NCBI GenBank assembly: GCA_000004985.1
Contig: GG738861.1
Source of the DNA: Naegleria gruberi
Lineage: Eukaryota
Strand: one strand, 5' to 3'
Length of the DNA: 64,000 nt
Made by a program: the position numbers and the translations under genes. Positions 3,073-37,504 of the stretch are shown in pieces (positions within the stretch are counted from its first letter, which is position 1; every line of letters begins with the position of its first letter). Under the pieces are notes generated by a model that did not search any database, was not told where the DNA came from, and saw only the letters and a program-made list of their open reading frames with translations.

Positions 3073-3975
3073 ATGTCTCAAACAACAGTAAAGAATCGTT
3101 GCCCTCACAGAGTTTGGTATCGATTGTATGAATCCGATGATGTAAACTTTACAGGAAAAGACATTGCATCAGGTGAACAGCAAACTGTGGAGGGTGAATT
3201 TAAATCAGTGAAGGGATTCAAGTGGGAGAGAGGAGAGGATGAAGTTTGGGAACCAACTTTTAAAAGTCTATTAGAACCACAAGATGCTTGGAATTATCAC
3301 GTTGATTTGACTTCATTGTTTGGATGTAGACCTGCTAGCTCAATCAAAGTGTTCATGGCATGTTTGGCTGGTCCAGCAGATCCAATGACAAGGAATGACA
3401 TTATTCTCATCGATAAATTACATAAAGAGATTGGTGTACCAAGGGAGAATATTTGGATGTTTTTGGAGAGACAATGTACACCAAATGCAATTTATGAATC
3501 ATTGAAGGTGGCTGCCGAAATTTGTAATGATGAAAATGATATCCTATTTGTTTATTTGGGAGGACATGGAAGCAGAAAACAAAGTGAAGTTTATCAAGAA
3601 AGTGGAAACAAGTTTGAATATAATTTGGGAACTTGGGGAGGATCTACTCCTAGCTCACTTGTTTTGAAAGCAATTCAAAATGTAAAGTGTCCTGTTTTTA
3701 TGGTAGTGGACTCGTGTTATAGTGGCCAAATGATTGATGATGCAAAGAGTTATTTCCTTCATGCACCTCTTGCTCATGAGTTGTATGTTTTAACTTCAAC
3801 TCAGAATGACAAGTCAGCTCAAACTGGCTGGAGACTAATTCAAATGTTGATTGATATCATGATTGAAAGATCAAAGAGTATTACAATTACTCCTACTCTG
3901 ATAGGAAAGACAATTTCAGAAAATTTGAGAACCCCCTATGAAGAACAACGATCTCAATTCCAAATTATTGAATAA
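3073..3975 (+). CDS. caspase-fold (clan CD, C14-like) cysteine peptidase domain protein, 300 aa
   Basis: Putative catalytic dyad ILFVYLGGHGS ... VFMVVDSCYSGQ, with ~48 residues between His and Cys as in caspases and metacaspases. No signal peptide seen. Confidence 0.45.
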   Translation: MSQTTVKNRCPHRVWYRLYESDDVNFTGKDIASGEQQTVEGEFKSVKGFKWERGEDEVWEPTFKSLLEPQDAWNYHVDLTSLFGCRPASSIKVFMACLAGPADPMTRNDIILIDKLHKEIGVPRENIWMFLERQCTPNAIYESLKVAAEICNDENDILFVYLGGHGSRKQSEVYQESGNKFEYNLGTWGGSTPSSLVLKAIQNVKCPVFMVVDSCYSGQMIDDAKSYFLHAPLAHELYVLTSTQNDKSAQTGWRLIQMLIDIMIERSKSITITPTLIGKTISENLRTPYEEQRSQFQIIE

Positions 3976-6637: not shown

Positions 6638-7092
6638 CTCGAGTGCCGGGAATTGAATTTCCTAATTTGGAAGATGACTTCAACAACCAAATAACAATAA
6701 TAAATTGGGTTATTAAATTAATGTTTATTAAATAGTGACCGTTAGGTCACTGATTGTTAATTAATTATTGATGATGATTTGTTGTTGAACAGATACTAAC
6801 CACCACCGATTGTTGTCATAATATTAAACACAGAGTAATCACCGTGTCGCCAAATTCCTTGATAATTATTCATAACTGTAACTTCTTGATCAAAAGGCAC
6901 TCGAGCAATAAACAATTTGATTTCACACAGCCAAAACTCTCGTTCATACTTTGGGTACCGGGAATGAAATTTCCAAATAAGGAATGACCGATATCATTCA
7001 ACTATTACTAACTCATACTCACACTAACAAAACAAATTGAACCCGGGTCGCCAGAGTGACAGTCTGGAATGCTACCACTATACCACACCCGA
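6638..7092 (-). pseudogene. tRNA-Asp(GUC) gene interrupted in the T-loop: 5' part 7092..7035 (nt 1-60), 3' part 6650..6638 (T-stem CCCGG + acceptor CACTCGA + discriminator G)
   Basis: Reverse complement of 7035..7092 is TCGGGTG TG GTAT AGTGGTA GCAT T CCAGA CTGTCAC TCTGG CGAC CCGGG TTCAATT (anticodon GTC). Reverse complement of 6638..6657 is TTCAATT CCCGG CACTCGA G. The acceptor halves pair 7/7 with one G·U, and the T-stem halves pair 5/5. The two parts are 377 bp apart. Confidence 0.75.
6658..7034. mobile_element. 377-bp non-coding insertion in the tRNA-Asp T-loop, flanked by 7-bp direct repeats AATTGAA (6651..6657 and 7035..7041)
   Basis: Left end TTTCCTAATTTGGAAG and right end ...CAACTATTACTAACTCATACTCACACTAACAAAACAA. 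Both ends are homologous to the ends of the 1,333-bp insertion at 23272..24604. It contains an internal second copy of the junction motif at 6951..6985. Confidence 0.55.
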
Positions 7093-8159: not shown

Positions 8160-9710
8160 TTTATCAAACTTGATGAATTTTTTCCATGTTGAAAATTACA
8201 GTAAGTTGTTAATTGCAATGTTTGCTGATTGTTTGCTCGTAATGTTTGATGATGTGTTGAATGAAAATAATGAAAAGTCATATTGTAAAGTTGTTCTTCT
8301 TCACTTGACTTTCCACATTTAAAAAATGACCTCTAAAATAGTTTTTTAAACTTCAATTTGACTTGCCATCAATCACATCAATCATTCTATCATTAATTTT
8401 TCATTTAAATATTTTTTTAACACACAAATCATCAATTAAAAATCAAAAAAAAACAAATCCATTCAAATTCTATAAAAATGTCATTCTGTGAAGACGTTCA
8501 AGCCCTCGTTGTCGATAACGGTTCTGGTATGTGTAAAGCTGGTTTTGCTGGTGATGATGCTCCAAGAGCTGTCTTCCCTTCAATTATTGGTAGACCAAAG
8601 CAAAAGTCCATTATGGTTGGTATGGGTAATAAGGATGCCTATGTTGGTGATGAAGCTCAATCCAAGAGAGGTATTTTAACTTTGAAGTATCCAATTGAAC
8701 ACGGTATTGTTACCAATTGGGATGATATGGAAAAGATCTGGCATCACACTTTCTACAATGAATTGAGAGTTGCTCCAGAAGAACATCCAGTCTTGTTGAC
8801 TGAAGCTCCTTTGAATCCAAAGGCCAATAGAGAAAAGATGACTCAAATTATGTTTGAAACTTTCTCAGTTCCAGCTATGTACGTCGCTATTCAAGCTGTC
8901 TTGTCCTTGTATGCTTCTGGTAGAACTACTGGTATTGTTTTGGACTCTGGTGATGGTGTTTCCCACACTGTTCCTATCTATGAAGGTTATGCTTTGCCAC
9001 ACGCCATCTTGAGATTGGATTTGGCTGGTCGTGATTTGACTGATTATTTGATGAAGATTTTGATGGAAAGAGGTTATTCATTCAATACTACTGCTGAAAG
9101 AGAAATTGTCAGAGATATTAAGGAAAAGCTCTGTTATATTGCTTTGGATTTCGAAGCTGAAATGAAGGTTGCTGCTGAATCATCATCAGTTGAAAAGTCA
9201 TACGAATTGCCAGATGGTAATGTTATCACTGTTGGTAACGAAAGATTCAGATGTCCAGAAGTCTTGTTCCAACCAAACTTCATTGGTATGGAAGCTGCTG
9301 GTGTTCATGAAACTACTTTCAACTCCATTGGTAAATGTGATATTGACATCAGAAAGGACTTGTACGGTAACGTTGTCTTGTCTGGTGGTACTACTATGTT
9401 CGAAGGTATTGCTGAAAGAATGACCAAGGAATTGACTGCTATGGCTCCTGCTTCAATGAAGATTAAGGTTGTTGCTCCACCTGAAAGAAAGTACTCTGTC
9501 TGGATTGGTGGTTCCATCTTGGCTTCATTGTCCACTTTCCAACAAATGTGGATCACAAAGGAAGAATATGAGGATGCCGGTCCAGGTATTGTTCACAGAA
9601 AGTGTTTCTAAATCTATTGATTTTGAAACAATTCAATTCTCCCAAACAAACAACAAAAACTTGTTTGTAATAAAACTATTATGTAAAATTAAAATCAATC
9701 TGAATACTTT
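8160..9710. repeat. arm B of the inverted actin duplication
   Basis: See arm A. The arms are separated by ~5.8 kb carrying 3073..6180 and the repeat-rich 6200..8100 region. Confidence 0.8.
8478..9611 (+). CDS. actin (copy B), protein identical to copy A
   Basis: Same 377-aa translation as 846..1979. Nucleotide sequence differs at a few synonymous sites (alternate-frame shadow ORFs 1034..1288 and 9169..9423 differ at 6 of 84 codons). Confidence 0.95.
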
Positions 9711-22782: not shown

Positions 22783-23271
22783 TTTATTGTCAATTTAACT
22801 CCAACATGTCCATATTCGCAATTCAAAATTCAAATGAGGTGAATGTGAGCCAAATTGGGGTAACAATTAATATTCATCTTTTTTGATCATTACTTAACTA
22901 TATTTGTACATAATAACCTGGGTTTAGAACTATGAGAATTGCGGAAGAGGTCCTCTTCATTGCTTGTACGATTATGTACAGTAATTGAGTTTGGGTACTG
23001 TCTTGTCCTTAATTAATTGATAAATTTTGCAAACAAATAAAATCGAATTCCAATTCTATTCTGGGTAGCCAAACTCACGCTGCATTACCCCAACTCTAAT
23101 ACTAATTGGTTTAAAAAAAATTAAAAATGACCCATTCTCAAAAAGAATTGGGATTAGAGGTAGTAATATTTGGATGGAAGATAGTAATTAATGTCTGGTT
23201 TTAGTGATAATCAAACAAAATGTAAAAGGAGGCTAAGAAAAGTAACTGGTTTGCGTCGACCGGGAATTGAA

Positions 23272-24604
23272 ATTTCCTTTTTTGGAATTCATTTAACTTT
23301 TAATTTTATGATGAAATTATGAATTATTTATTTTAATATTATTCATGATGTGAAACATCATGTTGAATTCTGTTCATTATTTTTAATTCATGATGTGAAA
23401 CATCATGTTGAATTATTAACAAATGTTGTTCTTCAATTTTTCATTGAATGTTGTTCTTTCAATGAATGTTGGAATAAGTGTCCAGTATATGATAGAATTG
23501 TTAATACAAGTAAGTTTTCTATTATTTTATATTTATTAATTGACTCACGGGTAATGGAATTTCCTTTTTTGTAAATCATCATGATTGATGATGATTGATG
23601 ATGATTAAATAATAATAATTTATTATTTTATAGATGATGGTACAATTAGATTTGTTAGTACATATCCTAATTGTATTTTAAAGAAAGAAAATTCACCAAC
23701 TAAAATTGAAGATATTATTCGTGAATATGAAGATGTAAAAGTTGTTTTAAATGAATTAGGTAAATCAACAACAAAAATTTATTCATCAGATACAACAAAA
23801 CATATGAATTTCCTAAAAGTTTTATTTATTTATGTAATGGTAATATTAAATATGATCAATCATTAAATATATCACAAGGAATTTATACAATTAAAATTCA
23901 AGATGATGAACATGATCACAAATATTATTATTTATTCGGAAGAGGTTTATTATTTCTATCAATTACATTACAAATGATTCCAACATTTAGTTTAAACAAG
24001 TATTATTATGAAATTGTATTGAATGATTTAAGTAACACATATTTTGATAAGAATGAAATTATTCAATATAAAATTGAAATTTTGCCATCAAATATTATTC
24101 AACAATATTCTAAACGAAAGTTTCTTGTTAGAAAAGATAGTCAAAAGAACTCAAGATTTATTACATATCAACCTGACGCTCAATCACCATCAAAGAAAAC
24201 AAAGAAGAATAACATTATTGAAAGTGATATTGAAGATTTCGATTGCAATATTAAAGATATTGATGATTGGGTATAGGGAAACGGAATTTCCTAATTGGGA
24301 ATGTCATCACACAATAAATTAAATTTATTATTTATTCATTGATGTTCACAAACTGTGAATTAACACATTACATGATGAAACAATTCAAACATTTACTCAA
24401 ACTTTAAACATTAACCATCGGGTAACGGATTTTAATACATGTACTAGTATGTTTATTAATTGGTCGACGCACATAAATTTAAATAAACAAAATTAACAAG
24501 ATTTTAAACAAAATCCTACATAGAGTTGGAGAACGGGAAATGAAATTCCCAAATTGAAATTGAGAAACAACTATTCATTTCACAATAATTCATACTATCA
24601 AAAT
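23272..24604. mobile_element. 1,333-bp insertion in the tRNA-Gly T-loop, flanked by 7-bp direct repeats AATTGAA (23265..23271 and 24605..24611); carries ORFs
   Basis: Left end ATTTCCTTTTTTGGAATTC and right end ...CAACTATTCATTTCACAATAATTCATACTATCAAAATG are homologous to the ends of the 377-bp insertion at 6658..7034. It contains internal junction-motif copies at 23541..23575, 24272..24300 and 24528..24560, and a 45-bp tandem duplication at 23341..23414. Confidence 0.55.
23608..24279 (+). CDS. insertion-internal ORFs (frame 23608..23848 overlapping frame 23764..24279), hypothetical protein with AT3-biased codons
   Basis: Two overlapping open frames (~80 and ~171 codons) that could be joined by one short intron or a frameshift. 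Leu is almost all TTA and Lys AAA, unlike host genes (TTG/AAG). There is a possible 3' splice site TTATTTTATAG at 23622..23633. No transposase or integrase motif is recognisable. Confidence 0.3.
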
Positions 24605-24969
24605 GAATTGAACCCGGGTCACGGCGATGGCAACGCCGTATTCTACCACTAAACCATCGACGCTTCTTGTTAAGATATTAAGGTTCCTTAATTTAATATA
24701 AGGAATATCCAAAATGCTTAAAGTACAACACAACAAGAATTGAGTATTCGTTTGAACATGCTGTAAAATATTTCAAATTATGCTAAGATCATTTGATGTA
24801 TTTAATGCCATAGGGCATTGAGAGCCATCATTTGAAGATTCAAATAGTATGTTCTTGATTTTATCTGATAAAGCACAAGAATAACATTTCATCCACTAAA
24901 TTTTATAAATGTTGACTGTGTTACATAATAGTATTTAATTATTATTGAAATGAGGATAACAATAAATTA

Positions 24970-32165: not shown

Positions 32166-32238
32166 CGCCCACCGTGGGGGTCGAACCCACGACCACAAGG
32201 TTAAGAGCCTTGCGCTCTACCGACTGAGCTAGACGGGC
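32166..32238 (-). tRNA. tRNA-Lys(CUU), 73 nt, intact
   Basis: Reverse complement is GCCCGTC TA GCTC AGTCGGT AGAGC G CAAGG CTCTTAA CCTTG TGGTC GTGGG TTCGACC CCCAC GGTGGGC G. Cloverleaf with anticodon CTT and conserved GTTCGA T-loop. Confidence 0.9.
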
Positions 32239-32394
32239 TACATGTTCATCATTTTGTATTCTTAAAATAAAATAATAATCAATCTTGATGATTAATATGA
32301 TTATTAGTCTTCAAACACGAATATCAAAATAATGTGTTTCTAGACAATAATGATTATTGTCTAGAAATTTATTCTTGAAATTGCACTTAAAAAA

Positions 32395-34355
32395 ATGAAC
32401 AAACGACATCTAGCTGTAGAAATTCTAAACGATCAGTTCGGAGACATTATTGGCAAGGTTGGTTCTGTTCTTTTAGAACAAGGACCTCAGACCATGACGG
32501 ATTTGATTCAAAATACATCATTGCAATTTCCTCAAGTCAGAAATGCTCTCCTTGTTTTAATTCAACACAACATGTGTGTCTATTTTGACAAGAATATATA
32601 TCAACAAAAATTAGAACATGGATCAAAGAATGCGGAAGAGGAAGATGACATGAAAACACAAACAGAAAAATTGAGAGAACAAGAGGAAAGGAGAGAAAAG
32701 TGGAAGCATAAAGGTGGAGGTAATGATACAGCACCAGTCACTGTACCTATTGAGGAAGAAGAATCGGAACAAATTAAAGCAGAAAAACAAAAACAATTCG
32801 AAAGACAAAGCAAAATTATTTATTATCAAGTAATCATTGAAAATATTATTATGAGGTTGAAGAGTGCCAAGTTATTATATACCATTAGGACAAGTTATGG
32901 TATTGATGCAGAAGAATTGTTGCACATTCTCTTACAACACGGCAGATTGACAATGAAGGAATTAATTCAAAAAGCTTTGGAAAATATTACACAAACAGGT
33001 AGGTTTTACCCAAATATTTTGAGTGTATTGAATACTGTTATTGTTTATTTAATCTATTATTATTGTTAATTAATATTACTTTTAAACTCGGAATAACCCA
33101 CTCTCAATTTTATTAATTTTTATTATTATTATATTATTATTATCATAATAATAATATTTAAAAAGATTATACATTTGCCACTGAAAGTAAAAAGACATCC
33201 TTCATCACTGCCTTCCAAAAGATGGTCAAGGACAGATTTATCAAGAGAGTTCAGCCATATGTTTCATCCATTCAACTTCAAGAACAAAAGAAAAATGCAA
33301 AGGAAGGAGGATCAAACTCTACAACAGATTTACTTCAAAAGTACTCCAAACAAAACAAGGAATCTAAAAAGAAATCGGACAAGTCAAAGAAGAGAAAGAC
33401 AATTGAAGATGAAGATGGCAGCTCTCAATATGAACCTGAAAAGAAAAAGAAGAAGGGAACAAGTTCAGAAATTTCACCACTCGAATTTGACACTGAAGAA
33501 TTTGATTCAATTGATGAAGATGAAATTCATATTGATGCTGAAAATATTTTGTGGACTACCAATTACTCACAATTTATCAGAACTTTCAGAAATGAATCCA
33601 TCATTAAATATGTTGAAACCAAGATGGGAGAACAATTTGCATCCATTGTTAAAGCTGCCTTTGATGAAACTGCACCATATCAAAGATCTAAGAATGATCC
33701 AATGTCAACACCACTCAAATTTGAAAAATTATATGATAGAATATCAGAAACTGAGGAAATTGGTAGAAAGGTATTGGAAAATAACTTGAGTTTCCTCTGT
33801 AATCCAGAATTGGATATTTTGAGAGCTATGGGTAAGGACACTTATTTCATTAATTTGAAAGGTGTTGCCGATAAACTCAAAAAGCAAGAAACTGAAGTCA
33901 TCATTTCACAAAAATACAGTGTGATTGGATGTAGATTATTCAGATTATTGCTTGAAAAGAAGTATTTGGAACAGACTCATATTGCCGAATGTGCACTTTT
34001 ACCACCTTGTGAAGCTAGAACTCTATTGATGAACATGTTGAGAGGCTCCATCCTTCATTTACAAGAAGTACCTAAGAGTAAGGATCGTAGCGCTCAACAA
34101 ACCTTCTTCCTGTGGAGTGTCAAGTTGGAACAAGTTTATGAAAAGATTATCGATGACATGTACAAATCTGTAAGAAATTTGAGAATTAGATTAAAGAAAG
34201 AACAACAACATATAATTGAATCAGGCATTCTCGAAAGCACCTATTTGAGTGAAGAACAAGAAGAACAAATCAGACGATTGAAAAACATTGAAGACAGATT
34301 AGAAGCCTCTCTCATCAAACTAGTTGACCTCATTACTTTATTCGAAGATTTTTAA
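32395..34355 (+). CDS. RNA polymerase III subunit RPC82/RPC3-like; 2 exons (32395..32998, 33166..34355)
   Basis: N-terminal winged-helix region FGDIIGKVGSVLLEQGPQTMTDLIQNTSL...VRNALLVLIQHNM and LLQHGRLTMKELIQKALENI resemble Rpc82. Intron GTAGGT...AAAAAG of 167 nt keeps the frame into 33166. Confidence 0.55.
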
Positions 34356-34525
34356 ACTTATAAAAAACATTTTCACCTGAGTACACCTGTGTGCTTGATA
34401 GAACAGATTTCTATAACTCAATAATAACTATTGACTCCAATTATTCTGAGAAATGATCATTAACCACCTCTGTACAACAAATCTGTTGTTGCTTCAAAAG
34501 ATTAAATGTTGAAAGTGAATTTTTC

Positions 34526-37233
34526 TTGAGTTCAAAAAAAATGAGAAAACACGGAGGCAACAATAAGAAGCCTTCAAACAACAACAATAAGAAGGGAGGA
34601 AATAACCCTGCTGGTAATCAAAAAGGTGGAGCCGGAAAGAAGTTTGGTGGCGCTGGAAAGAAGGCACCAAACCAACAAAAAAGAAAGGCAGAAGAAATTG
34701 TCAAGGATGATGATGTTCACTTGAGTGATTTGGATGAAGCCGATTTTGAATTTGCTGAAAGAATGAGTAGTCTTGCTGATTTGAAAGAGTAAGTTTTATA
34801 TATTTATTGATTGTTCTTATGGAATATTATTACAGGTCCGACTTTGATAAGAAGAAAAAGAAGAAACAAAAATTCAACAAACCAGATCCTTCGGAAATGA
34901 TTTCTGATGATGAAAAGGAACCAACAGTATCCGAAGATGAGGATGATTTGAAAGTAAAACAATTAGAAGAAACCTACTCTAAAGGAAGACTCTCAAAGAT
35001 TATGGAAAAGACTGAAAAAGTTTTGGAAGAAAATGAAAAGGAAGAATCACAAAAGAAGGTCAAATTAAAGCTTCCAATTAAGGGTGAGGATGGTACCATT
35101 AAAAAACAACTTCAAGTTATCCAAGAAAAGGAGGAAAAGAAGAAAGTTTTGACAAAGCAAGCAAAGAAGGATAAAAAGGAACAACAAAAGAGAAATGAGG
35201 AACAAGAAGAGGATGATATGGAGGATGAAATTGATGAAGAGGAAGTGTTTGATTCACTGAATACTAAAATTGAGGAGGAAACAGACGAAACCAAAAAGGA
35301 AAGAGAAGCCAAAAAGCAAGAAAAGATTAGACTTCAACAAATTTTGGAAGATCCTATTTTGAGAGAAAACAGAAGACAAAAATTAAGAACTGAAATTGGT
35401 GCATTGGCTTCCTCCATTTTAGAATTGCCAGATGTTAATGTGAGTATAGTTGATCATTATTGAAATATTTAACCATTTATCAAGTTAATCAAAATTTCTA
35501 GAATTTATGACTTGTGTATGGATGGAGATGTTTTTGTGAAAAAGATTGCAGTTCTCTCCATGTGTGCTCTTTTCAAGGATTTACTTCCTGATTACAAGAT
35601 TAACTTGGAAGTTGCTGCTGAAGGTACTCGTTTCTCAAAGGAAGTTAAGACAAGAAGAAACTTTGAAAGTAATATTTTGAAACACTATCAAAAATATGTA
35701 CTCTATGTAGAGAAACATGCCAAGACTCCTTCCTCTAAAATTCAATTGATTTGTGCCAAGAGTTTGTGTGAACTTTTGGTTAATAGACCATACTTTAACT
35801 TTACCAATGATATTATTAGAATTATTGTTCCACAATTGAACTCTAAGGTTGACAAAGTGAGAGAACTTGTTGCTCAAAGCATTTCTGAACTCTTTGCCAA
35901 CGATCCAACTAAGGGTGCAACCAGTTTAGATATTGTTGAGGAAATTGCTGCCGTAATTGTAAGGAAAAAGTATGAAGTTTCTCCAACCATGTTCGATGTT
36001 TTCTTGTCCCTCAAGTTAAAGACCATTTTGAAAGACAAGGTTTTACCTGAAAATATTGTGAATAGAAAGAAGAATAAGAGAAATAAGAAGAAGGCTAAGG
36101 ATCTTTCAGATGGTGAAGAATTGAGAAGAGATTTGAAGGAAGCTGAAGGTGCATCAAACTCTGAACAAAAGAAGAATCAAACTGATATTTTGAGAAATAT
36201 CATTGTTTGTTATGTCAGAGTTCTCAAACAACAACCTGAATCACCAATCGTTTTCAGTGCTTTGGCAGGTTTGGCCAAGTTCTCCCACTTGATGAATGTT
36301 GATATATTGTACTCTCTCTTGGATTATATGAAGGCCTTGTTGGAATCTGCTGATAATATCAATGAATTGGTTGCCTCACATTTAGATGAAAATGAATCAA
36401 AGGCTTTCAAACCAATTGAATTACCAATCAGAACTGTTTTACAAACCCTCATCACTACTGCCAGACTTTTGACAGGTATTGGTAGTGCCATCGATATTGA
36501 TCCAAAGGAATTCTATACTCAACTCTACAATGCCATTGATAGAGTTATTTCATTACCATATGAAGAAACCAACCTTAGATTGCTTTTGGACGCTCTTGTG
36601 TTGCTCTTATTGAAGCCAGCCAAATTGCCAATTACCAGAGTTGCTGCCTTTATCAAAAAGTTATGTTGCTACTGTTTCACCACATCCATCCATATTACAT
36701 TGGCCTTCTTGGAAATTATTAAGGAACTCTTCATAAAATATCCAAATGCCAAGCAAATGCTCAGTGGAGAAGAAAGTGGTATTGGTAACTATTCATTCGA
36801 TGAAACTGTTCCAGACAGCACAACTCCATTCTCTAGTCCATTGTTCGAATTGGGTCAAATTCAAACTCACTACCACCCACAACTCAAATACAGTTTAGAT
36901 GGTATCAGAAGTGTTTTGGGTCTCGTAACCAAATTCCAACAAACCAAAGCCAGAGACGAATTCAAACTCTTATCATGTGATGAATATCAAAATATTTTAA
37001 CAGAGTTCGATCCACAAAACGTCAAATTCAAACCACCAGTGCAAGCTCCAACCTCACATCCACTCCAAGAAAAATTAGAAAGACTCAGCGAAAAGAAGAA
37101 TAATCCAGAATTTAACAAGAAGAAGAAGCAAAAACTCCAAGAAAAGCAAATCTACGTTTCTCCATCACTTCTTCACATGAGATCAACTTTTGCCCTTGAT
37201 TGTCTCTCTAAATCATCGACATTACGTTTGTAA
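34526..37233 (+). CDS. NOC3-like nucleolar complex protein; 3 exons (34526..34788, 34836..35439, 35485..37233)
   Basis: K/E-rich N-terminus, then VLSMCALFKDLLPDYKINLE... and a long helical CBF-like region. Introns of 47 nt (GTAAGT...ACAG) and 45 nt (GTGAGT...CAAG) restore a single frame across the three listed ORFs. Confidence 0.5.
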
Positions 37234-37504
37234 AAAAGATTGTAAATAAATATCGACTTTTTCAACTTTCCAATACTAAAACCCAACAGGTTGGCACCTT
37301 ATCAGTCAACTAGCCTCAGACAAACAAAGTGGAGAAAATCAAAAAGACAAAAGACTACAGCACCACAGGTTCCCAAGTTGTCTCCAACCTCAGTACTGAT
37401 GTGGCTCGACGATGCTTAACTTCTCAAATCGGACGGGATGAGGTGCATTCATCGTGATATGGCCGTAGCCATTCATAACCCTAAAACAATGAATGTAAAG
37501 AATA

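Follow-up and report, generated by a model that had tools for sequence, protein, structure and literature searches.

A relic tRNA junction inside the insert that splits a tRNA-Asp gene of Naegleria gruberi, and its likely carriage within a composite mobile element

Why should an insert that breaks a tRNA gene contain, close to one of its ends, what looks like the break of a second tRNA gene? The question is raised by a tRNA-Asp(GTC) gene on the minus strand that is broken in its T-loop by an insert of 377 bp (positions 6658–7034 of the window, by which we mean the whole 64-kb stretch of DNA that was analysed). An earlier note on this DNA had described, inside the insert, a second segment resembling a tRNA 3′ end and joined to an element end, and had proposed that it recorded either successive insertions or recombination between elements sitting in different tRNA genes, with 3′ halves of other tRNAs left behind. 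Our results point to a different history. The segment at 6950–6984 is the relic of a junction, in which an element end is joined to a tRNA 3′ half with T-loop-, T-stem- and acceptor-like parts. A second hit on this tRNA gene is probably not its source, and it is plausible that the relic goes back ultimately to some earlier event of insertion or capture.

The window is nuclear DNA of N. gruberi with a GC content of ~33%, and an actin (846–1979) and a further protein (3073–3975) encoded in it match N. gruberi entries exactly (EFC36529, NAEGRDRAFT_66093). The 6-kb segment that holds the split tRNA-Asp gene is bracketed by an inverted duplication of ~1.5 kb (747–2306 and 8164–9710, 98–99% identity), within which lie two identical genes for a 377-amino-acid actin (846–1979 on the minus strand and 8478–9611 on the plus strand). 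Searches of the window with ARAGORN and Rfam found an intact tRNA-Lys(CTT) gene (32166–32238) and a dispersed 5S rRNA gene. These two belong to a Pol III–related cluster at 32166–37470, which comprises the tRNA-Lys gene, the gene for the RNA polymerase III subunit RPC82 (33222–34355) and the 5S rRNA gene (37352–37470). The T-arm of the intact tRNA-Lys differs from the T-arm of tRNA-Asp and tRNA-Gly, the window's other two tRNA genes, both of which are broken at an identical position in the T-loop.

At the tRNA-Asp locus the insert lies between two copies of TTCAATT (a 7-bp direct repeat that reads AATTGAA on the plus strand), and the outer pieces, when rejoined, give a canonical 71-nt tRNA-Asp(GTC) according to ARAGORN. 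The coordinates of this and the second split gene are collected in Table 1. Read in tRNA sense, the true right junction runs TTCAATT CCCGG CACTCGA G (6657→6638), and the unit that abuts its T-loop repeat, U2, ends in a TTCC-N6-GGAA hairpin motif. The middle of the insert, within U2, also contains a perfect 7-bp hairpin (AGTGACC GTTA GGTCACT, 6733–6752) that is present in both the minimum-free-energy (MFE) and the centroid folds.

Table 1. Positions in the window of the parts of the two split tRNA genes and of the sequences inserted in them.
Feature	Position	Strand	Details
3′ part of split tRNA-Asp(GTC)	6638–6657	−	6638–6650, T-stem 3′ strand, acceptor 3′ strand and discriminator (CCCGGCACTCGAG in tRNA sense); 6651–6657, TTCAATT copy
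Unit U2, 292 nt	6658–6949	−	AGTATGAAC ... TTCCAAATTAGGAAA in tRNA sense
Inverted 10-mer, Asp locus	6896–6905	+	GGCACTCGAG; CTCGAGTGCC in tRNA sense (6905→6896); 122 nt from the 5′ junction
Relic tRNA 3′ half	6950–6969	−	In tRNA sense TTTCATT (T-loop, 1-nt deletion), CCCGG (T-stem 3′ strand), TACCCAA (acceptor-like), A
Unit U1, 65 bp	6970–7034	−	5′ end of insert TGTTTTGTTAGTGTGAGTATGAG...; internal copy of the hairpin end motif TTCCTTATTTGGAAA
5′ part of split tRNA-Asp(GTC)	7035–7092	−	Ends ...CCCGGG TTCAATT; second TTCAATT copy at 7035–7041
3′ part of split tRNA-Gly(GCC)	23252–23271	−	Includes TTCAATT copy at 23265–23271
Composite insert in tRNA-Gly	23272–24605	−	Four units, each ending TTCC-N6-GGAA
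Units of the Gly insert	U4 23272–23539; U3 23560–24266; U2′ 24287–24525; U1′ 24546–24605	−	
20-nt relic 3′ halves between the Gly-insert units	23540–23559; 24267–24286; 24526–24545	−	
Inverted 10-mer, Gly locus	24462–24471	+	GGTCGACGCA; TGCGTCGACC in tRNA sense (24471→24462); 129 nt from the 5′ junction
M module of the Gly insert	24472–24605	−	U1′, relic 3′ half and 56 nt; homologous to 6906–7034
5′ part of split tRNA-Gly(GCC)	24606–24663	−	Ends with TTCAATT

The second junction inside the Asp insert is real in all of its pieces. On the plus strand it reads T, TTGGGTA, CCGGG and AATGAAA over 6950–6969 and continues with TTTCCAAATAAGGAA at 6970–6984, which gives the acceptor-like 7-mer, the CCGGG, the T-loop-like 7-mer and the hairpin end motif (TTTCC-N6-GGAA) of the earlier description, and the last stretch of the insert (65 bp) does bear both end motifs. 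The likeness survived a scored alignment, in which 6955–6984 was 80% identical to 6643–6672 over 30 nt, and a profile of the internal module also matched the junctions at 6638–6672 (E = 0.013) and 24267–24306 (E = 0.042). A claimed resemblance of the adjoining sequence (CGTTCATACT on the plus strand, ~6941–6950) to the right end of the element held only in part: TCATACT (AGTATGA in tRNA sense) is present there, but as a mere 7- to 8-mer it is not significant on its own. Across the 64 kb, a mismatch-tolerant search with the junction motif returned many scattered weak matches, and the six sites that combine acceptor-like, T-stem and hairpin context occur only in the two split tRNA genes, all in one orientation. 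In a metagenome scan for the true junction (CGGGAATTGAA-N0-1-TTTCC), all 120 hits were unrelated, most of them in GC-rich bacterial contexts without an upstream tRNA acceptor.

The second split gene encodes tRNA-Gly(GCC), likewise on the minus strand, and its T-arm is identical to that of tRNA-Asp. The interruption matches that of tRNA-Asp in T-loop position and in orientation and consists of an insert of ~1334 bp with TTCAATT at both borders (where the common stretch is 8 bp), and the rejoined halves of the gene fold as a canonical tRNA. ARAGORN instead calls a full-length tRNA-Gly at 24593–24664, which we reject as a chimera: the call uses the first 16 nt of the element, with weak pairing, as T-stem and acceptor 3′ strands, the Rfam tRNA model rejects it, and the real 3′ part of the gene lies 1.3 kb off. 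Every unit of the Gly insert ends in TTCC-N6-GGAAA, after which come 7 nt that resemble a T-loop, 5 nt that resemble a T-stem and 8 nt that resemble an acceptor. In tRNA sense, the first two of these junctions read TTTCATT TCCCG TTCTCCAA and TTCCGTT TCCCT ATACCCAA, and the last two read TTCCATT ACCCG TGAGTCAA and, at the true outer border, TTCAATT CCCGG TCGACGCA. The hairpin ends form two subfamilies, one made up of the Asp insert and U2′ (~45 nt at the hairpin end of U2, 75% identical to 24277–24322) and the other of U3 and U4 (~80 nt at 71%). The three extra units of the Gly insert start with relic 3′ halves and are without U1, and they require either a further composite history or elements whose 5′ end mimics the right flank of the target.

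Some other features of the inserts stand apart from the junctions. Both inserts open, right after the T-loop repeat, with a run of four T residues (TGTTTTG at 7028–7034 and CATTTTG at 24598–24604, in tRNA sense), and Pol III transcripts from the split tRNA promoters should therefore end after ~65 nt, giving 5′ tRNA fragments. In U3, an open frame of ~215 amino acids with one frameshift runs opposite to the tRNA (23630–24276, plus strand), which is unusually long for DNA of 30% GC, and the frame ends at a stop codon within the 24267–24286 relic 3′ half. This pseudo-ORF had no homologue among 5.8 billion proteins and may be a captured or element-specific gene fragment. U4 holds a segment of ~28 nt, TTCATGATGTGAAACATCATGTTGAATT, twice as a direct repeat (23340–23420), with the palindrome CATGATG...CATCATG in each copy.

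Was the inner junction made at the tRNA-Asp locus, or was it carried there? A comparison of the two inserts bears directly on this point. We refer to U1, the relic 3′ half and the 44–56 nt of spacer next to it as the M module. In Smith-Waterman alignments, the M module of the Asp insert (6906–7034) scored 29 with that of the Gly insert (null 11.6 ± 1.9; 0 of 2000 shuffles), and the relic with its downstream spacer scored 16 by itself (null 8.1 ± 1.4; 2 of 2000 shuffles). The similarity of U1 alone between the two loci was not significant (279 of 2000 shuffles), and the middle parts of the Asp and Gly elements gave no alignment. In addition, the internal junctions at 6950–6969 and 24526–24545 have in common a derived T-loop, TTTCATT, that differs from TTCAATT by a 1-nt deletion. 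Because the homologous blocks stand in the same order and the derived T-loop is common to both, the internal junction should be older than both insertions and have been carried inside the element, which argues against the successive insertions at this locus that had been suggested and equally against a scar of recombination formed here. The T-loop copies themselves agree with this order of events: all four outer repeats are identical, and all four internal copies differ from them while the outer tRNA halves look intact, which suggests that the inner junctions are older than the disruption of these genes.

From which tRNA, then, did the relic come? Its T-stem strand, CCCGG, is that of both tRNA-Asp and tRNA-Gly. 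The earlier note had stated that the segment does not match tRNA-Asp, which is correct insofar as the 7-nt acceptor strand is not identical (TACCCAA as against CACTCGA); the T-stem, however, is identical, the acceptor differs by transitions only, and TACCCAA pairs with the 5′ strand of tRNA-Asp (TCGGGTG) at six of seven positions (chance P ~0.013), compared with two of seven for tRNA-Gly and two of seven for tRNA-Lys, the other tRNA genes of the window. The relics at the Gly locus form 5/7, 6/7 and 4/7 pairs with the tRNA-Asp 5′ strand, and tRNA-Asp is again the best fit. In both M modules, moreover, a TTTT run follows 14–15 nt past the relic, like the Pol III terminator in a real tRNA trailer. 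Judged by these sequence matches, the relic is best read as a decayed Asp-type 3′ half that belongs to the element lineage and not as the half of a foreign tRNA left here. The proposal that recombination had left behind the 3′ halves of other tRNAs thus loses ground on two counts, the best fit to tRNA-Asp among the window's three tRNA genes and the occurrence of the TACCCAA relic type at tRNA-Gly as well.

A different kind of tRNA-matching sequence lies at the exact point where the homology between the Asp and Gly M modules stops. Each insert has there a 10-mer that is a perfect inverted copy of positions 64–73 of its own host tRNA (the last 2 nt of the T-stem, the acceptor 3′ strand and the discriminator), and the copy ends at the discriminator. 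When the 10-mer was compared with the 13-nt 3′ half, none of 1000 shuffles reached 10 nt at either locus; when both strands of the entire tRNA were taken for the comparison, 2% and 3.9% did. Chance is nonetheless very unlikely, because the same tRNA positions, orientation and offset recur at both loci. Inverted copies of the following 3′ half were sought in every unit and found only in U2 and U2′, and only against the true outer 3′ end. All seven positions that discriminate between the strands (−1, 4, 8 and 9 at Asp; −1, 8 and 9 at Gly) match the reverse complement of the 3′ strand, which favours a complement of that strand over the 5′ strand and indicates that the 10-mer is not a decayed 5′ half. 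We also considered whether the sequence after the 10-mer was a decayed 5′ part of a host-type tRNA (TGGCGACACGG at Asp; CCGTTACCCG..GGTT-AAT at Gly) and rejected this reading, as its scores of 17 fell within the shuffle null (median 15–17). In the MFE fold the Asp 10-mer pairs with 6638–6647, and the fold of the RNA from 6950 to 6636 has a closing helix of 10 bp beside a GGAA/UUCC hairpin formed by element end and T-loop, with a z-score of −3.05. The M modules are only ~60% identical between the loci and yet each 10-mer is perfect to its own host, which implies either that the 10-mer is templated anew when the element inserts or that selection maintains it in lineages specific to one tRNA.

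We propose, at a probability of roughly 55%, that 6950–7034 is an internal fossil junction of a composite, non-autonomous mobile element that inserts in one orientation into N. gruberi T-loops with the T-arm CCGGG-TTCAATT-CCCGG and duplicates TTCAATT. The copies are non-autonomous, range from 65 to ~700 bp, and have a conserved hairpin-like end that adjoins the tRNA 3′ part. In the history that we envisage, a short ancestral element resembling U1 would have sat in an Asp-type tRNA gene, and its hairpin end (TTCC-N6-GGAAA) would then have been bypassed or read through, or the ancestor would have been mobilised together with a second, downstream copy. The mobile unit would thereby have gained the old right junction, consisting of the T-loop, the tRNA 3′ half and a trailer of ~45–56 nt with a T-run. 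This enlarged unit may later have entered the present tRNA-Asp gene, and a diverged relative the tRNA-Gly gene. Both the capture step and the chemistry of movement are what we infer from the observed junctions. Statements about the family are based on n = 2 loci (tRNA-Asp and tRNA-Gly) in one window. The capture model leaves the host-specific inverted 10-mer unexplained. One conceivable account, to which we attach a small chance, is that the 10-mer is a specificity element adapted to or templated by each tRNA, which pairs with positions 64–73 of the host gene or of a read-through transcript and either guides the element to its cognate gene or, with the GGAA/UUCC hairpin, builds a minihelix at an RNA end. 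In the latter variant the minihelix, tRNA-like in its acceptor and T parts, would sit at the 3′ terminus of the RNA made from the element, where it would define the end of that RNA and prime copying.

To our knowledge, few eukaryotic mobile elements insert inside tRNA genes with strict site specificity, and Dada is the only superfamily described as doing so. Dada transposases are distinguished by a DDE plus DxxH signature and by CCCC and CCHC zinc fingers. Dada transposons insert inside tRNA, U1, U6 and 5S genes, produce 6–7-bp duplications and have no inverted termini (Kojima & Jurka 2013, PMC3706591; Kojima 2022, PMC8869645), and single Dada families target Val, Gly-GCC and Asp-GTC tRNA genes (PMC3706591; PMC8869645). 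The N. gruberi inserts resemble them in using a fixed site inside a multicopy small RNA gene (here the same T-loop position and orientation in tRNA-Asp and tRNA-Gly), in the size of the target duplication (the 7-bp TTCAATT at all borders of both inserts), in lacking terminal inverted repeats (neither terminus, TGTTTTGTTAG... at 5′ or ...TTCCAAATTAGGAAA at 3′, is related to the inverse of the other), in that one family occupies several tRNA types with a common target, and in having short element sequences that repeat a motif of the target gene. They differ in size, with copies of 65–1334 bp as opposed to the 4.7–11 kb of Dada, and internal relic tRNA 3′ halves are undescribed for Dada. The target-motif copies of Dada, furthermore, are sub-terminal repeats equidistant from the duplication, and none such is found here, where the sole copy of target sequence is the inverted 10-mer, 122–129 nt inside the 5′ end, whose partner lies 3 nt from the duplication, with no second arm near the other end.

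A search of the window with six Dada-type proteins (tblastn) gave no hit, and no transposase, reverse transcriptase or integrase/recombinase domain was found in the 20 ORFs scanned, 19 of which came from the window's 27 ORFs of at least 250 amino acids. A profile of three Dada transposases from the supplement of the published description retrieved proteins from Perkinsus and fish and one labelled bacterial but none from Naegleria, in a word-indexed search that may miss a divergent homologue. Since no transposase was found, membership in Dada is unproven. The element is probably of the tRNA-interrupting, target-specific transposon kind, with Dada as its nearest relation. The most likely means of movement would be a Dada-type DDE transposase acting by cut and paste, since no other known superfamily enters tRNA genes internally while making duplications of 6–7 bp and lacking inverted termini. 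In the searchable literature, we found no description of tRNA-interrupting elements in Naegleria or other heteroloboseans.

Other known systems share single features with the inserts. Prokaryotic integrative elements that target tRNA genes (tyrosine recombinases with attP/attB) are alike in the symmetric tRNA-arm target, the identical short core at both junctions and the element-borne sequence resembling a tRNA 3′ half; they are unlike in that insertion here leaves the tRNA broken, no integrase turned up in the scanned ORFs, the host is eukaryotic, and the 3′ half borne by the element is degenerate and 65 bp from the 5′ part of the tRNA. A tyrosine-recombinase element or Crypton would call for a recombinase gene, one core at either junction and an att site on the element that matches the target. 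The 7-bp core does recur unchanged at either junction, within a 5-7-5 palindromic target; the scanned ORFs yielded no recombinase gene, and the arms of the inferred circle junction (GGAAA/TGTTT) are unlike the T-stem arms. Flank capture, as in L1 3′ transduction, end bypass by Helitron or IS91 and composite transposons, likewise yields an old element end and a former flank inside a longer mobile unit, but the ends here have neither Helitron (TC...CTRR) nor LINE (A-tail) signatures; with a tRNA gene as target, the flank taken in is a tRNA 3′ half. The retrotransposons that target tRNA genes in Dictyostelium (TRE5/TRE3, DGLT-A) and yeast (Ty3) similarly use these genes as safe havens in a gene-dense genome, but they insert up- or downstream of the tRNA gene without interrupting it, whereas here the T-loop is the target.

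Several identifications were tried and set aside. A non-LTR retroposon or SINE does not fit a 3′ end formed by a hairpin motif ending in GGAAA, a fixed 7-bp duplication and a window whose scanned ORFs gave no reverse transcriptase, though activity in trans is conceivable. A Helitron was rejected on the lack of TC...CTRR and the presence of a duplication, and an LTR with primer-binding site (PBS) on the lack of TGG for CCA and of a second LTR. Simple tandem insertion would leave separators of 7 nt, and those observed are 20 nt. Known tRNA introns and split tRNA genes break at 37/38 or at a bulge-helix-bulge without flanking repeats, and here the break lies between T-loop positions 60 and 61, with a 7-bp direct repeat and lengths of 377 to ~1334 bp.

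Five rival accounts of the tRNA-like segment within the insert were weighed. Mobility through RNA, which we hold to be unlikely but a serious rival nonetheless, would make the units retroposed RNAs of tRNA sense whose 3′ ends were set by tRNA 3′ processing of a read-through transcript, with the T-loop and 3′ half dragged along and the units concatenated by template jumping or 3′ transduction. It would explain why each relic is exactly 20 nt from T-loop to discriminator-equivalent base with the next unit directly abutting, why the 3′ hairpin is conserved among units whose lengths and 5′ parts vary, and why the inverted 10-mer stops exactly at the discriminator, an RNA-processing landmark, and the predicted fold sets a 10-bp acceptor-like helix beside the GGAA/UUCC hairpin. 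Nevertheless, the inserts have no A-tail or simple-repeat tail, the flanking repeat is fixed at 7 bp, no reverse transcriptase turned up in the scanned ORFs of the window, and the T4 run with which the element opens at its 5′ side would halt Pol III transcription from the tRNA promoter. Also unlikely is local nesting, by which the 65-bp U1 independently entered a T-loop regenerated by an earlier, longer element with a 5′ end mimicking the 3′ half, the same having happened independently at tRNA-Gly. U1 does have both end motifs and T-loop-like 7-mers on each side, each of U2, U2′, U3 and U4 starts with a T-stem- and acceptor-like stretch by which the T-arm and B box would be restored after insertion, and tandem insertions are known for Dada (whose hosts include the protist Perkinsus; PMC3706591; PMC8869645). 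However, the two internal junctions agree in their 1-nt T-loop deletion, and the sequences to either side of them are significantly homologous, an outcome that one does not expect of independent hits; the inner 7-mers are unlike the outer repeats even though the host halves seem unmutated.

Ectopic recombination or one-ended transposition between elements in different tRNA genes, which would have left the 3′ half of a foreign tRNA, has a documented parallel in Dada-tL_DR, an element with a GCGTTCA duplication in tRNA-Leu and chimeric tRNA flanks (PMC3706591), and the acceptor strand of the relic is indeed not identical to that of tRNA-Asp. We regard it as quite improbable here, since the outer halves at each locus match perfectly as one tRNA, so that the locus itself is not chimeric, and since, as described above, tRNA-Asp is the best fit to a relic type that tRNA-Gly also contains. 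It is very doubtful that the inserts are functional intervening sequences of split tRNA genes in which the inner tRNA-like pieces act in processing. The intact look of the outer halves beside diverged inner sequence, the perfect complementarity of the 10-mer to the local 3′ end at both loci and the z-score of −3.05 would suit such a role, but borders with a 7-bp direct repeat bear the signature of transposition, the lengths differ about fourfold, the Gly 10-mer lies 1.2 kb from its partner, the insert matched no RNA family in Rfam at either gathering or permissive thresholds, and we know of no tRNA splicing at T-loop position 60/61 in Heterolobosea. Finally, chance resemblance in AT-rich DNA can be given hardly any weight: AGTATGA and TTCC..GGAA do arise randomly, and a 15-mer search with three mismatches gave 21 hits where 9 were expected, but the shuffle tests of the 10-mer and the M module oppose it, as does the confinement of the full junction motif to two split tRNA genes in a single orientation.

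A fossil junction carried within a composite element, the reading that we prefer, would show how tRNA-interrupting elements can grow by taking in the adjacent half of a tRNA. For annotation the inserts are a warning, since tRNA finders may call chimeric genes here and miss the split ones. If the tentative reading of the inverted 10-mer is true, this would be a eukaryotic mobile element with a programmable relation to its target, defined by base pairing; and host-matched 10-mers, should they prove to be the rule, would suggest that base pairing takes part in choosing the target or in forming the end of the RNA, which would be relevant to research on targeted integration.
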